Shown here one piece after another: positions 8,249-16,411 of a stretch of DNA of 64,000 nucleotides. The stretch's first letter is position 1, and the number at the start of each line of letters is the position of its first letter. Where the stretch lies: positions 2,381 to 66,380 of the forward strand of contig NZ_DASWTG010000041.1 in NCBI RefSeq assembly GCF_036402235.1, read 5' to 3'. The notes under the pieces were generated by a model, which was not told the origin of the DNA, made no database searches, and saw only the letters and a list, made by a program, of their open reading frames with translations. The DNA is from Sphingomonas sp. GTDB lineage: Bacteria; Pseudomonadota; Alphaproteobacteria; Sphingomonadales; Sphingomonadaceae. A program made the translations under genes and the position numbers.

Positions 8249-8611
8249 TCACAAAAGCGCCCGCACTTCCTCGACGAAGCGCATCACCGAGATCGGCTTG
8301 GTGACATAGGCGTTGGCGCCGGCAGCGCGGATCCGCGCCTCGTCCTCCTGCCCGGCATAGGCGGTGACCGCCATCACCGGGATGCCCTTGAGCGCCGGGT
8401 CCCCGCGCATCCGCCCGATGATGTCGAGGCCGGAGATATGCGGCAGCTGGATGTCCATCACCACCAGATCGGGGTTGAACGCGCGCGCGGTCGCCACCGC
8501 CTCGCGCCCGTCGCGCACCGGCGAGGTCTCGAAGCCGTGCGCGCGTAGCAGGTCGCAGAAAAGTTTGAGGTTGAGTTCGTTGTCCTCGACAACCAGCACC
8601 CTTTTTGCCAC
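8249..8611 (-). CDS. divK: Single-domain response regulator, DivK-like
   Basis: KRVLVVEDNELNLKLF, MDIQLP, VTAYA, VTKPIS. Sits between DUF3572 and rpmG as divK does in other alphaproteobacteria. GTG 8611 or ATG 8626 start. Confidence 0.8.
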   Translation of the reverse strand: MAKRVLVVEDNELNLKLFCDLLRAHGFETSPVRDGREAVATARAFNPDLVVMDIQLPHISGLDIIGRMRGDPALKGIPVMAVTAYAGQEDEARIRAAGANAYVTKPISVMRFVEEVRALL

Positions 8612-12179: not shown

Positions 12180-15100
12180 TCATCCAACTACCTGGGCGCA
12201 GCGGTGGCACAGCGCGCCCTCGGCTTCAACCTCCGGCAGCAGCCGCCAGCAACGGCCGCACTTCTCATGGTCCGTGCGCGCGACGGTGACGTCGCCGTCC
12301 TGAAGCTTCACATCGGCCACGATGAACACCTCGGCCAGCTCCGCGGCGGGGCGCAGCATCTCGGGCACCGTCACCTCGGCCTCGAGGCTCGACCGGATCG
12401 TCTTCTCGCGGCGATAGGGCTCGATCGCCTCGGTCACCTTCTCGCGCAACGCGCGGATGTCGGCCCACTCGGTCGAGATCGCGTCGTCGCCGGGCAGCGC
12501 GGGCAGCTCGGGCCATTCGAGGAAATGGACCGACCCGTCCTCGCTCGGATAGCGCGCCTGCCACACTTCCTCGGCGGTGAAGGCGAGGATCGGCGCGGCG
12601 TAGCGGACCAGCGCGTGGAACAGCAGGTCGAGCACGGTGCGATAGGCGCGGCGCTTGAGGCTGTCCGGGTCATCGCAATAGAGGCAGTCCTTGCGGATAT
12701 CGAAGAAGAAGGCCGACAGGTCCTCGTTCATGAAGTCCGACAGGGCGCGGGCGTAGCGGTTGAACTCGAACGCTTCCGCCGCCGCGCGCAGCTCGACGTC
12801 GAGCGCGCCGAGCTTGTGGAGGATGTAGAGCTCGAGCTCGGGCATCTTGCCCACCGCGACCTTCTCGGCATCGGTGAAGCCGTCGAGCGCGCCGAGCAGA
12901 TAGCGGAAGGTGTTGCGGATCTTGCGGTAGGCGTCGCCGGTGCCGGCGAGCACTTCCTTGCCGATGCGGACGTCCTCGAAATAGTCGGTCTGCGCGACCC
13001 ACAGGCGCAGGATGTCGGCGCCGCTCTCGCCGATGATCTTGAGCGGATCGACGACGTTGCCGAGGCTCTTCGACATCTTGCGGCCCTGCCCGTCGAGCGC
13101 GAAGCCATGGGTGAGCACGGCGTCGTACGGCGCGCGGCCGCGCGTGCCGGCGCTTTCCAGCAGCGACGACTGGAACCAGCCGCGATGCTGGTCGGAGCCT
13201 TCGAGATAGAGGTTCGCGCGGGTTCCTTCCCCGTAACGCGCCTCGATCACGAAGCTGTGGGTCGAGCCGCTGTCGAACCACACGTCGAGGATGTCGTTGA
13301 CCACCTCATAGTCTGCGAGCGCATAGTTTGACCCGAGCAGCGCCTGATGGTCCGCGCCGAACCACGCGTCGGCGCCGCCCTGACGGAAGGCGTCGAGGAT
13401 GCGCGCGTTGACCGCTTCGTCGCGCAGATAGTCGCCGGTCTGGCGGTGGACATAGAGCGGGATCGGCACGCCCCAGGCGCGCTGGCGGCTGATCACCCAG
13501 TCCGGACGGCCTTCGACCATCGATCGGATGCGGTTGATCGAACGCTCCGGCACCCACCGCGTCCGCTCGATCGCATCGAGCGCGAGGTGGCGGAGGGTGG
13601 GGGAATTGGTCGGGTTGACGATCGGGCCGAAGCCGGCATCGGCGGCGAAGGCGGGGAGTTCGTGGGGGACGGAACCTGCGATTCTTCCCGTCGTCCCAGC
13701 TCTTCCCGTCACCCCAGCGAAAGCTGGGGTCTCCTGCGGCTCCTGCCCCGCCCCACGGCCAGAGGCCCCAGCTTCCGCTGGGGCGACGATGTTGTGGCGA
13801 GCGCCGTCCATCGGGATGAACCACTGCGGCGTGCAGCGGAAGATGATCTTCGCCTTGGAGCGCCACGAATGCGGATAGCTGTGCGCGAAATCGTCCGACG
13901 CGGCGAGCAGCGCGCCGGCTTCACGCAGGTCGGTGCAGATCGGCCCGTCGCTGGCGACGAACTTCTTGTTGATGACCGATCCCTGCCCGCCGAGCCACAG
14001 CCAGTCGGGGCGGTAGAAGCCCGCATCGTCGACCGCGAACACCGGATCGATGCCGTGCGCCTTGCACAGCAGGAAATCGTCCTCGCCATGATCGGGCGAC
14101 ATATGGACGAGGCCGGTACCGGCATCGGTGGTGACGAAGTCGCCGGGCAGGAACGGACGCGGCTTGGCGAAGAAGCCGCCGAGATGGTGCATCGGGTGGC
14201 GGGCAGCGGCGCCGGCAAGTTGGATGCCCTTGATGGTCAAGGCTGGCGAAGCTGCCTTCGGATCAATCGCATCGTCGAAGAAGAAGCGGATACCCGAATA
14301 GCGAGCCGCATCCAAGCCAGCCAACTTAAGCGCACGACTGAGCCGGTCACCAAATGCTTCGATCAACTCATCGGCGATCAAGACTCGGGCGCCTACGGGA
14401 AAGCCGATGGTGCGAAGTGCGGCTTCGACCTCTTCAATCGAGACGGCGCCTGCGTCCGTCCCAGACAACCCGACGGCGGTCGGGTCGAGCGTCAAGAGAC
14501 GGTACTCGACCTCCTCCCCATAGGCGAGCGCCTGGTTCACCGGGATCGTCCACGGCGTGGTCGTCCAGATCACGGCATGCGCGCCGACCAGCTCGGGCGC
14601 GTTCGGCGCCTCCGTGATCTCGAACGCGACGTCGATCTGGGTCGAGACGACGTCCTCATATTCGACCTCGGCCTCGGCCAGCGCGGTCTTTTCGACTGGC
14701 GACCACATCACCGGCTTGGCGCCGCGATAGAGCTGGCCGCTGGTCGCGAACTTCAGAAGCTCGCCCGCGATCGTCGCCTCGGCGTCGGACTTCATCGTGA
14801 GGTACGGATCGTCCCAGTCGCCGATCACGCCGAGCCGCTTGAACTGCTCGCGCTGGATGCCGACCCACTTCTCCGCATAGGCGCGGCATTCGGCGCGGAA
14901 CTCGGCCGGAGGGACCTCGTCCTTGCTCTGCTTCTTGGCGCGATACTGCTCCTCGATCTTCCACTCGATCGGCAGGCCGTGGCAGTCCCAGCCGGGGACA
15001 TAGGGCGCGTCCTTGCCCATCAGGCTCTGGCTGCGGACCACGATGTCCTTGAGGATCTTGTTCATGGCGTGCCCCATGTGCAGGTCGCCATTGGCGTAGG

Positions 15101-15293
15101 GCGGGCCATCGTGAAGGATGAAGCGCTCGCGCCCCTTCCGCTGCTCGCGCAGCCGGTCATAGACGCCGATCTTCGCCCAGCGTTCGAGGATCGCGGGCTC
15201 CTTGGCGGCAAGGCCCGCCTTCATCGGGAAGTCGGTCTTCGGCAGGAAGACGGTGTCGCGCCAGTCGCGGGCGGAATCGGTGGTTTCGGTCAT
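12180..15293 (-). CDS. ileS: Isoleucine--tRNA ligase (type 1) carrying two in-frame insertions/replacements
   Basis: PPYANGDLHMGH, WTTTPWT, GTGLVH, KMSKS and C-terminal CGRCWR...CHRC zinc finger. Start MTETTDS at 15293, 1037 aa. Confidence 0.97.
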   Translation of the reverse strand: MTETTDSARDWRDTVFLPKTDFPMKAGLAAKEPAILERWAKIGVYDRLREQRKGRERFILHDGPPYANGDLHMGHAMNKILKDIVVRSQSLMGKDAPYVPGWDCHGLPIEWKIEEQYRAKKQSKDEVPPAEFRAECRAYAEKWVGIQREQFKRLGVIGDWDDPYLTMKSDAEATIAGELLKFATSGQLYRGAKPVMWSPVEKTALAEAEVEYEDVVSTQIDVAFEITEAPNAPELVGAHAVIWTTTPWTIPVNQALAYGEEVEYRLLTLDPTAVGLSGTDAGAVSIEEVEAALRTIGFPVGARVLIADELIEAFGDRLSRALKLAGLDAARYSGIRFFFDDAIDPKAASPALTIKGIQLAGAAARHPMHHLGGFFAKPRPFLPGDFVTTDAGTGLVHMSPDHGEDDFLLCKAHGIDPVFAVDDAGFYRPDWLWLGGQGSVINKKFVASDGPICTDLREAGALLAASDDFAHSYPHSWRSKAKIIFRCTPQWFIPMDGARHNIVAPAEAGASGRGAGQEPQETPAFAGVTGRAGTTGRIAGSVPHELPAFAADAGFGPIVNPTNSPTLRHLALDAIERTRWVPERSINRIRSMVEGRPDWVISRQRAWGVPIPLYVHRQTGDYLRDEAVNARILDAFRQGGADAWFGADHQALLGSNYALADYEVVNDILDVWFDSGSTHSFVIEARYGEGTRANLYLEGSDQHRGWFQSSLLESAGTRGRAPYDAVLTHGFALDGQGRKMSKSLGNVVDPLKIIGESGADILRLWVAQTDYFEDVRIGKEVLAGTGDAYRKIRNTFRYLLGALDGFTDAEKVAVGKMPELELYILHKLGALDVELRAAAEAFEFNRYARALSDFMNEDLSAFFFDIRKDCLYCDDPDSLKRRAYRTVLDLLFHALVRYAAPILAFTAEEVWQARYPSEDGSVHFLEWPELPALPGDDAISTEWADIRALREKVTEAIEPYRREKTIRSSLEAEVTVPEMLRPAAELAEVFIVADVKLQDGDVTVARTDHEKCGRCWRLLPEVEAEGALCHRCAQVVG
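13707..13788. repeat. CGTC-tagged REP doublet inside ileS, read in frame
   Basis: cgtcaccccagcgaaagctggggtctc...gaggccccagcttccgctggggcgacg; arms nearly identical to the intergenic copy at 21640-21720. Confidence 0.92.
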
Positions 15294-15472
15294 TTGGGGG
15301 CGGGGATTAGCTTGTGTGGGGCGGCGGGGGAAGAAGATTGGTTCAGCAGGGCGCGGAACGTGCTTGCAATGTTGGATTTCGCCTGCTTGGCTCGTTCGGC
15401 GGCATCGCGCCGCCGCTCTTTGAAATTCACCGTCAGGGTTGCCGCGAGCGCGTGAAAACGGCGCTGATAGTG

Positions 15473-16411
15473 TCAACCAAGTGTATACTTCCGCAGCGCG
15501 TTGCGCGCCGCGTCGCAATCGGCGGCGATCTGGGCCTTCAGCGCATCGAGCGAATCGAACTTCGCCTCGTCGCGGAGGTATTCGATCAGCTCGACCTCGA
15601 TGGTCTGGCCGTAGAGGTCGCCCGAAAAGTCGAAGAAATAGGGCTCGAGCAGCTCGACTGGCGGCTCGATACTCGGGCGGATGCCGAGATTGGCGGCTCC
15701 CTCTAGGACGCGACCGTCCGAGAGGCGTCCCCGCACCGCATAGATGCCGTAGCGCGGCCGGAGATAATTGCCGAGCTGGAGGTTGGCGGTGGGATAGCCG
15801 AGCTCGCGCCCGAGCTTCGCGCCCGGCTCGACCACGCCCTCGATCGCGAAGGGGCGGGTGAGCAAAGCGGCGGCGTCGCGCGGCTTGCCGGCCTGCAGCG
15901 CCTCGCGGATGCGGCTCGATGAGATGACCTCGTCGCCATCCTCGACCGGGGCGACGGTATCGACGCTGAAGCCGAGCTCTTGGCCGAGCGCATGCAGCAC
16001 GCCGACATCGCCGTCGCGGCCCTTGCCGAAGGTGAAGTCGGCGCCGGTGACGACCCCGCCCGCGCCGATCAGCTCGACGAGGCGCTGCTCGGCAAAGGCG
16101 CGCGCTGGCAGCCCGGCGAGCGCGGCGTCGAACCCGAACACCAGCATCGCGTCGGCGCCGGCCTCGCCGAACAGCCGCTGGCGCTGGTCGAGCGTGGTCA
16201 GGCGGAAGGAGGGCGTCTGCGGCCGGAAATAGCGCATCGGGTGCGGATCGAAGGTGGCGACGATCGCCGGTCTTCCCTCGGCGCGCGCGCGCTCGACCGC
16301 GCGGCCCACCACCGCTTGGTGCCCGCGATGAAATCCGTCGAAATTGCCGAGCGCCACGATCCCGCCGCGCAGATGCGCCGGAACCGCGACCGCTCCGTCC
16401 AGCCGCTCCAT
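15473..16411 (-). CDS. ribF: Riboflavin kinase/FAD synthetase
   Basis: ALGNFDGFHRGHQ, GADFTFG, ISSSRIR, GRELGYPTAN and LEPYFFDF motifs; start MERLD at 16411. Confidence 0.95.
   Translation of the reverse strand: MERLDGAVAVPAHLRGGIVALGNFDGFHRGHQAVVGRAVERARAEGRPAIVATFDPHPMRYFRPQTPSFRLTTLDQRQRLFGEAGADAMLVFGFDAALAGLPARAFAEQRLVELIGAGGVVTGADFTFGKGRDGDVGVLHALGQELGFSVDTVAPVEDGDEVISSSRIREALQAGKPRDAAALLTRPFAIEGVVEPGAKLGRELGYPTANLQLGNYLRPRYGIYAVRGRLSDGRVLEGAANLGIRPSIEPPVELLEPYFFDFSGDLYGQTIEVELIEYLRDEAKFDSLDALKAQIAADCDAARNALRKYTLG

Follow-up and report, generated by a model that had tools for sequence, protein, structure and literature searches.

The window analyzed here, a stretch of 64,000 nucleotides from a soil Sphingomonas sp. 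(contig NZ_DASWTG010000041.1 of assembly GCF_036402235.1), carries on its reverse strand the ileS gene for a type-1 bacterial isoleucyl-tRNA synthetase (IleRS; protein P0001). A block of 97 codons within the CP1 editing domain of this enzyme was probably replaced by recombination anchored in its conserved flanks, and the subdomain to which it belongs would be exchangeable in the Sphingomonadales; the probability of this reading is put at about 65%. The block, also called the module below, represents the distal, non-catalytic portion of the CP1 domain, in a long form that is rarely seen. It is sharply bounded, has a low G+C content at third codon positions (GC3), and is common to only two other proteins in the databases searched, both from metagenomes, neither of which is a sister of the window's IleRS in the rest of the gene. 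The coordinates of all features are listed in Table 1.

Composition and anatomy of the CP1 block

A first-pass annotation of the window had described a foreign-looking segment of about 100 codons at this place, and its landmarks were correctly set. AYGEEVEY (residues 257–264) and ARHPMH (residues 364–369) delimit the segment, which lies between the editing motifs TTTPWT and GTGLVH with the reading frame intact. The switch to codons that are rare in the rest of the gene was borne out by counts, as TTG, CTT, GCA, GCT, TTT, ATT, GTA, and CGA together made up 23 of the 97 codons in the block vs. 9 of 870 elsewhere in ileS. GC3 showed a significant dip (65 of 97 vs. 785 of 870 codons ending in G or C; Fisher P = 6e-9), with values of 0.67 in the block (residues 265–361) and 0.888 in the rest of ileS. 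At four-fold degenerate codons (A, G, P, T, and V), GC3 was 0.73 in the block vs. 0.96 elsewhere in the gene. The G+C contents at the first and second codon positions (GC1 and GC2) were coding-like, namely 0.65 and 0.50 in the block vs. 0.675 and 0.455 in the rest of ileS. A maximum-likelihood change-point search delimited a low-GC3 core (residues 286–350) with a GC3 of 0.58 vs. 0.88 outside, and its 2dlnL (twice the log-likelihood difference) of 27.5 exceeded the maximum of 17.4 reached in 200 permutations. Across the genome, windows of 97 codons had a mean GC3 of 0.88 (standard deviation 0.058), and at most about 1% of them reached 0.67 or below, a figure that is an upper bound for windows drawn from long open reading frames (ORFs) of high GC3.

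Three other explanations of the segment were rejected. A frame-shifted origin of the block does not apply, as G+C was near 0.9 at none of its codon positions. Relaxed constraint is not a sufficient cause of the low GC3, since variable columns elsewhere in the ileS of the window kept values of 0.86–0.96. An assembly artefact was also dismissed, because an independent Logan contig crossed both junctions with zero mismatches, and three independent assemblies encoded the same in-frame architecture.

The interval from the Thr-rich peptide to ARHPMH spans 102 residues in the window vs. 46–59 residues in most alphaproteobacteria, in which it forms a strand-helix-strand unit. The block was aligned with those of 29 relatives and about 35 named Sphingomonadales loci. 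The canonical sphingomonad block has 47 residues (YLQFEHDGRRYLVAEPLMPAFTKRTGIPMGKIIALIKGPVLEGATAR), and its core is recognizable in the window (ARVLIADELIEAFGDRLSRA ... LTIKGIQLAG), where it is split by two inserts of about 30 residues each; core-like words had likewise been seen in the first reading of the segment. An AlphaFold2 (AF2) model of residues 190–435, built on an alignment of 79 sequences, had a mean predicted local distance difference test score (pLDDT) of 82.6. Insert 1 contained a helix at model residues 97–106 (block-mean pLDDT 75–89), and the core comprised a strand at 114–118 and a helix at 119–135 (78–93). Most of insert 2 was a loop of lower confidence (56–65). The best structural matches of the model were IleRS CP1 domains. 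The module is thus predicted by modeling to fold as a unit, and neither the editing motifs nor the synthetic ones are affected by it. When solved IleRS structures (8C9E/8C9F and 1FFY) were aligned with the CP1 fragment, the alignments broke exactly at the module; residues 84–162 of the fragment were unmatched, and these roughly 79 residues of the window correspond to only about 24 in the solved enzymes.

The module alone had zero matches in a Pfam search, and Rfam returned a single chance miRNA match (E = 0.42) over positions 13900–14800. Searches of the window's own genome by blastn and tblastn returned only the block itself. The best inverted repeat in the block was weak (19 nucleotides, 79% complementary). 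An in-frame insertion derived from a repetitive extragenic palindromic (REP) element or a miniature inverted-repeat transposable element (MITE) was rejected on these grounds, there being no further genomic copies and no real palindrome. The variable region of a diversity-generating retroelement was rejected as well, with no second copy of the block genome-wide; a reverse transcriptase was not searched for.

Boundaries, carriers, and turnover of the block

At the nucleotide level, the window was 0.88–0.94 identical to its nearest relatives in both flanks, whereas identity within the block was no better than random, at about 0.3–0.5. On either side of the block lie two stretches, WTTTPWTIPVNQA and ARHPMH...FVTTDAGTGLVH, that rank among the most highly conserved of the gene in nucleotide sequence. 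Among 36 sphingomonad ileS genes, the 5' and 3' anchors had a mean pairwise nucleotide identity of 0.85–0.87 vs. a gene mean of 0.74. The same edges were found in four metagenomes, in which contigs of other sphingomonads with flanks of at least 85% identity had zero coverage of positions 14241–14457 and only a trace of coverage, in one run, at 14458–14488. These contigs departed from the window at joints in 14204–14222 and 14501–14518, between which they carried 165, 168, or 211 other letters, and the bounds of the segment in the first-pass annotation (14216–14505) agree with these joints almost to the base. Run X1 alone covered the block, and its contig crossed both junctions without a mismatch.

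A word-indexed search of the segment by itself among 5.8e9 proteins matched only P0002 (from a JGI soil metagenome, Ga0190275_10000032) and P0003 (from an ENA metagenome, ERZ27290719 k141_6155), whose modules were 64–67% identical. The three carriers share 50 invariant module columns, including GFPVGARVL.AD and LAGLD..RYS..RFFFD.A.DP. No further carrier was found in a pattern scan of 185,579 species, each represented by a single genome, or in an exhaustive HMMER profile search of 1.84e9 representative proteins, where the three matches were repetitive proteins. JGI metagenome contigs yielded none beyond P0002 (an extra match, L114, was not an IleRS), and the SRA word index listed only the source-like soil run X1. 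No donor with a block closer than its backbone was detected in these searches, as the best block matches were 62–68% identical vs. 67–76% for the corresponding backbones. A distant homologue of the long form was present in a metagenome-assembled genome of Parasphingorhabdus (L064; 37–43% identical), and further long forms of similar architecture occurred in scattered lineages (L012, L062, and L046).

Between carriers, the number of nonsynonymous substitutions per nonsynonymous site (dN) was 0.30, 0.36, and 0.36 in the module and 0.12, 0.18, and 0.18 in the flanks. The proportion of synonymous differences (pS) in the module was 0.69–0.73, near saturation, and the ratio of nonsynonymous to synonymous rates (dN/dS) was about 0.15. 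The module is therefore constrained rather than junk, and it is under purifying, not diversifying, selection. The module family looks old.

The carriers are scattered in a backbone tree of 60 IleRS sequences from which both variable regions of the gene (the block and a second loop, described below) had been removed. The window fell in a crown Sphingomonas clade of seven rows (support 98), P0002 lay outside a 27-row crown clade, and P0003 belonged to a clade that includes rows labeled Erythrobacteraceae (support 96). Monophyly of all three carriers was rejected by 395 log-likelihood units (approximately unbiased [AU] test, p = 5e-9), and that of the window with P0002 by 83 units (AU p = 0.0017). 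The nearest relatives of each carrier hold unrelated blocks. For example, the ribF gene adjacent to P0003 shares 85% identity with its counterpart in Sphingomonadaceae bacterium 3R27E2-A (L090), the genome closest to that of P0003, and yet L090 has a different ileS block. Sharp breakpoints between flanks of high identity coincide with a block distribution that conflicts with the tree of the remaining gene, as is characteristic of mosaic genes. The CP1 flanks of P0003 (L032; ileS residues ~170–475) were 0.93 identical to Sphingomonas changbaiensis vs. 0.80 to its own clade, which suggests that the recombinant tract in P0003 is larger than the module. A pair of genes for a TraY/DUF6290-type antitoxin and a ParE toxin was noted at positions 8607–9072 of L032, about 2.3 kb downstream of the ileS-lspA cluster of P0003.

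Close relatives of the window lack its module, and the comparison for a swappable cassette that the first-pass annotation had suggested across strains, made here across lineages, revealed a site that is exchanged in a cassette-like manner among Sphingomonadales. The clearest swap was between G006 (L002) and S. pokkalii (L033), whose ileS genes are 96–100% identical over nearly their full length and contain unalignable blocks of 78 and 64 residues; the second ileS loop differs between them as well. The same kind of block replacement separated L007 from S. hominis (L037) and L011 from L035, and other close pairs retained their block. In the close species pairs, the second loop was replaced in parallel with the CP1 block, as often or more often. 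The 52 Sphingomonadales rows fell into 25 block types, whose distribution over the backbone tree requires no fewer than 34 changes, and several derived block types were common to non-sister lineages. Short patches of 78–87% identity were also observed between L002 and L033 (e.g., at alignment nucleotides 60–105, 480–510, 1710–1740, and 2820–2850), and the ileS of this pair appears to be a mosaic over the whole gene through recombination.

Origin of the block and of its low GC3

In the favored reading, the conserved flanks would act as homology arms, and recombination with a divergent ileS allele would swap everything between them. The long form of the window, i.e., the canonical strand-helix-strand core with its two inserts, probably arrived by such a replacement from another sphingomonad. 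Distant homologues of the module sit in the lower-GC Sphingorhabdaceae, and the depressed GC3 would mark DNA of a different compositional history from the rest of ileS. Recombination as the mechanism is inferred here, as are when and in which direction the block moved and why its GC3 is low. The first-pass annotation had proposed a horizontally acquired hypervariable module, and this proposal stands as far as a discrete, cassette-like block of foreign-looking composition with polyphyletic carriers is concerned; no donor was matched, and a recent import into this lineage found no support. The selection by an inhibitor, a toxin, or a phage protein that the annotation had suggested as possible is purely conjectural.

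Several observations weigh against replacement by recombination. No donor sequence turned up in any search, and the evidence for a horizontal origin consists of incongruence and composition. The dN of the carriers' modules scales with that of their flanks, a pattern expected equally of ancient co-divergence and of ancient transfers. Low GC3 persists in the window and P0003 despite pS values near saturation, which is not predicted by import followed by amelioration. Furthermore, most non-canonical blocks show the dip irrespective of the G+C content of their host, a hint that its cause is intrinsic and does not lie in low-GC donors, and replacement is visible in relatives only, not directly within the window's own lineage.

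A vertical origin is unlikely, although it accounts for part of the data. The long form would have arisen once, early in the Sphingomonadales, through insertions into a tolerant surface loop, diverged fast, and been deleted or overwritten in most lineages, so that the window would retain an old variant. The proportionality of block and flank dN among the three carriers and the scatter of distant long-form homologues (L064, L012, L062, and L046) across the order are consistent with such a history. So are the pairs L039/L042 and L034/L041, which share a block architecture at 40–54% identity vs. 79–90% in the backbone and thereby show rapid divergence in place. However, a vertical origin requires many independent losses, each of which restored a canonical block close to that of the outgroup, and a clade of carriers was rejected by the AU test. 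Near-identical ileS genes with unalignable blocks are also beyond the reach of point substitutions in the time available, and the high GC3 of variable columns elsewhere in the gene indicates that the dip did not come from relaxed constraint.

The low GC3 extends well beyond the window. Most non-canonical Sphingomonadales blocks had a GC3 that was 0.12–0.38 below that of their own gene, regardless of host G+C content. Canonical blocks were without a deficit, as were a few shared non-canonical ones (L019/L063 and P0002). The three carriers differed in this respect: the deficit of P0002 was 0.01–0.03, that of the window about 0.22, and that of P0003 about 0.25. Divergent CP1 blocks of normal length (56–63 residues) with GC3 deficits of 0.20–0.37 were also observed in some alphaproteobacteria outside the sphingomonads, in L070, L080, L108, L072, and L099 (Rhodobacterales, Hyphomonadaceae, Bosea, and Caulobacterales), so that low GC3 may accompany novel blocks beyond Sphingomonadales as well. 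One possible cause is that the blocks came from lower-GC sphingomonads and have since ameliorated slowly; synonymous divergence between carriers is near saturation and the deficit nevertheless persists, which argues somewhat against simple amelioration. Alternatively, GC-biased gene conversion may not operate in blocks that lack an alignable allele to pair with; the underlying idea of such conversion is reportedly due to Lassalle et al. in 2015. Interference from recurrent selection is a third possibility, and Betancourt and Presgraves are said to have described, in 2002, reduced codon bias around adaptive substitutions.

Selection has also been considered as the force behind the turnover itself. 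It is distinctly improbable that the blocks form a trans-specific cassette polymorphism kept by an unseen antagonist that docks on CP1, with the order-wide GC3 deficit as the footprint of recurrent sweeps or of absent GC-biased gene conversion. An arms race, in which a protein antagonist that docks on the block's side of CP1 (e.g., a synthetase modifier from a phage or a toxin used between bacteria) keeps the block hypervariable and the low GC3 reflects Hill-Robertson interference, has a slightly smaller chance still of being correct. The turnover is indeed extreme and localized even between near-identical genes, and block types are common to different lineages. There is also a precedent for a phage factor acting on a class Ia synthetase, as the Vs protein of phage T4 binds the valyl-tRNA synthetase of its host. 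On the other hand, no antagonist is known or was seen, the module type evolves at a dN/dS of about 0.15, and many lineages that occur together have stably maintained canonical blocks. The IleRS inhibitors described so far, to judge also from the titles of PDB entries, occupy the synthetic site or the tRNA site and are not known to bind the distal CP1 block. The second ileS loop turns over equally fast merely by collecting selfish repeats, and because repeats are also found in the CP1 blocks of relatives, tolerance of insertions together with conserved recombination anchors is a sufficient neutral explanation.

The least probable origin is that the extra ~60 residues came from REP/MITE-type or other non-coding DNA that was inserted in frame and then domesticated: obvious repeat-derived inserts do occur in the blocks of relatives or after ARHP (GC3 0.65–0.73 where measured), a REP element lies in the second ileS loop of the window, and the module GC3 of 0.67 equals the genomic G+C content of 0.675, as expected of such DNA, but the genome contains no related repeat or second copy and the block no convincing palindrome, GC1 and GC2 are coding-like, the low GC3 extends over the CP1-homologous core, and the three carriers share purifying selection and a conserved motif.

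The rest of ileS, known systems, and implications

The ileS gene is single-copy in the genome, and the remaining synthetase matches are paralogues of about 31% identity. Pfam searches of the protein identified the class I catalytic domain PF00133 (E = 6e-128) and the anticodon-binding domain PF08264 (E = 4e-24), and the C-terminal zinc finger PF06827 scored 20.9 bits, slightly below its cut-off of 21.3. The class Ia signatures HMGH (residues 72–75) and KMSKS (739–743) were present, and the editing motifs TTTPWT (244–249), GTGLVH (392–397), and HGEDD (402–406) were intact. With its Rossmann catalytic domain, CP1 editing domain, and anticodon-binding domain with zinc finger, the protein is a type-1 IleRS.

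Table 1. Features of ileS in the window (positions in the 64,000-nucleotide stretch; residue numbers refer to P0001).
Feature	Position	Strand	Basis
ileS, type-1 bacterial isoleucyl-tRNA synthetase, 1037 residues (P0001)	12180..15293	-	Homology, Pfam, signature motifs
TTTPWT editing motif, within the conserved 5' anchor (IWTTTPWTIPVNQAL)	14547..14564	-	Motif position, nucleotide conservation
Divergent block (module), residues 265–361 (RLLTLDP...IQLAG)	14211..14501	-	Unalignable with same-genus relatives; common only to P0002 and P0003
Insert 1, residues 270–301 (DPTAVG...EEVEAALRTIGFPVG), loop then predicted helix	14391..14486	-	Alignment with canonical 47-residue blocks; AF2
Low-GC3 core, residues 286–350	14244..14438	-	Maximum-likelihood change-point search with permutation null
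Core strand-helix kept from canonical CP1, residues 302–321 (ARVLIADELIEAFGDRLSRA), homologous to canonical GRRYLVAEPLMPAFTKRTG	14331..14390	-	Alignment; AF2
Insert 2, residues 322–351 (LKLAGLDAARYSGIRFFFDDAIDPKAASPA), conserved motif LAGLD..RYS..RFFFD.A.DP	14241..14330	-	Columns invariant among three carriers; AF2
Conserved 3' anchor, ARHPMH (364–369) to GTGLVH (392–397)	14103..14204	-	Motif positions; editing residues intact
HGEDD, downstream of GTGLVH	14076-14090	-	Motif position
Second variable ileS loop, residues ~497–566, in-frame REP-type repeat; separate hot spot, not in the module	13599..13805	-	G+C content at first and second codon positions (GC12) 0.72, GC3 0.66–0.73

The stop-to-stop ORF of ileS extends over positions 12180–15518 (TTG at 15518), and the alignment of relatives starts at the ATG at 15293. 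The 225 nucleotides upstream of this ATG (15294–15518) had a GC3 of about 0.5 and are non-coding. An antisense ORF of 702 residues on the forward strand (13347–15455) overlaps ileS, and it is, together with the upstream extension, an ordinary artefact of a GC-rich genome.

The peptide encoded in the second loop (PAEAGASGRGAG...PAFAGVTGRAG...) looks like a translated REP-type repeat. Repeat-like, in-frame peptides rich in Gly, Pro, and Arg were also found in the CP1 block of L005, L009, L068, and L044, and right after ARHP in L003 and P0003. Examples from relatives include ...HPGEGRDPLTP..DPGLRRGDG... and HPGESRGRASSFEHGEGSPAPDQVRGDDG. In P0003 (L032, residues ~370–430), an insert of 58 residues (SPSPPAGEERDL...PSPAGGEGVNPASP) follows ARHPLAKFF. 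Selfish repeats therefore also land in the CP1 region of these relatives.

The solved CP1 domains of type-1 IleRS enzymes (Staphylococcus aureus 1FFY/1QU2, Priestia megaterium IleRS1 8C9E, and Thermus thermophilus CP1 1WK8/1UDZ) have the same fold as the model (Foldseek probability 1.00). They share with the window the T-rich and GTGxVH/HGEDD motifs that flank the segment and the strand-helix-strand core, whereas neither the two inserts nor the RYS..RFFFD.A.DP motif can be matched to any solved structure or Pfam family. The gene resembles the penA/pbp mosaics of Neisseria and Streptococcus (PMC10926701, PMC3241670) in its sharply bounded divergent block, near-identical flanks, incongruent phylogeny, and differing composition. 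Unlike these mosaics, it is a housekeeping aminoacyl-tRNA synthetase gene with no known selective agent and no donor identified; its block is unalignable rather than 10–20% divergent, and the events at this one site number in the dozens over the order. In-frame palindromic repeats in essential genes (the palindromic elements of Rickettsia and Wolbachia, CGTC-type REPs [PMC3733652], and the REP at 13599–13805 of the window) likewise add peptide that a surface loop, in this case of the ileS product, tolerates. The module differs from them in being single-copy, non-palindromic, coding-like in GC1 and GC2, and conserved among three carriers. The eukaryote- and archaeon-specific inserts of the leucyl-tRNA synthetase (LeuRS) CP1 domain (PDB 2WFD/2WFE) are also extra secondary structure peripheral to the editing fold that leaves the hydrolytic pocket untouched; these are fixed across kingdoms, whereas the sphingomonad IleRS insert varies and is exchanged between species of one genus. 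A literature search on hypervariable or mosaic IleRS CP1 domains returned nothing relevant. Mosaic genes are a known phenomenon, as are CP1 inserts of class Ia synthetases that are confined to certain lineages, and no description was found of an order-wide, cassette-like IleRS CP1 block with a systematic GC3 deficit.

In practice, the CP1 block and the second loop should be masked in ileS phylogenies and CP1 alignments of Sphingomonadales. Aminoacyl-tRNA synthetases are usually treated as slow, vertically inherited markers, and here 100–300 nucleotides of an essential, single-copy ileS outpace the turnover of species. If selection is the cause, this pattern points to an as yet undescribed factor directed at the editing domain; if the turnover is neutral, ultra-conserved motifs serve as recombination arms for the exchange of unalignable sequence inside an essential gene. 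The system may also provide a natural test of how GC3 is maintained in GC-rich bacteria, in that only blocks that are unable to pair with alleles may lose it.

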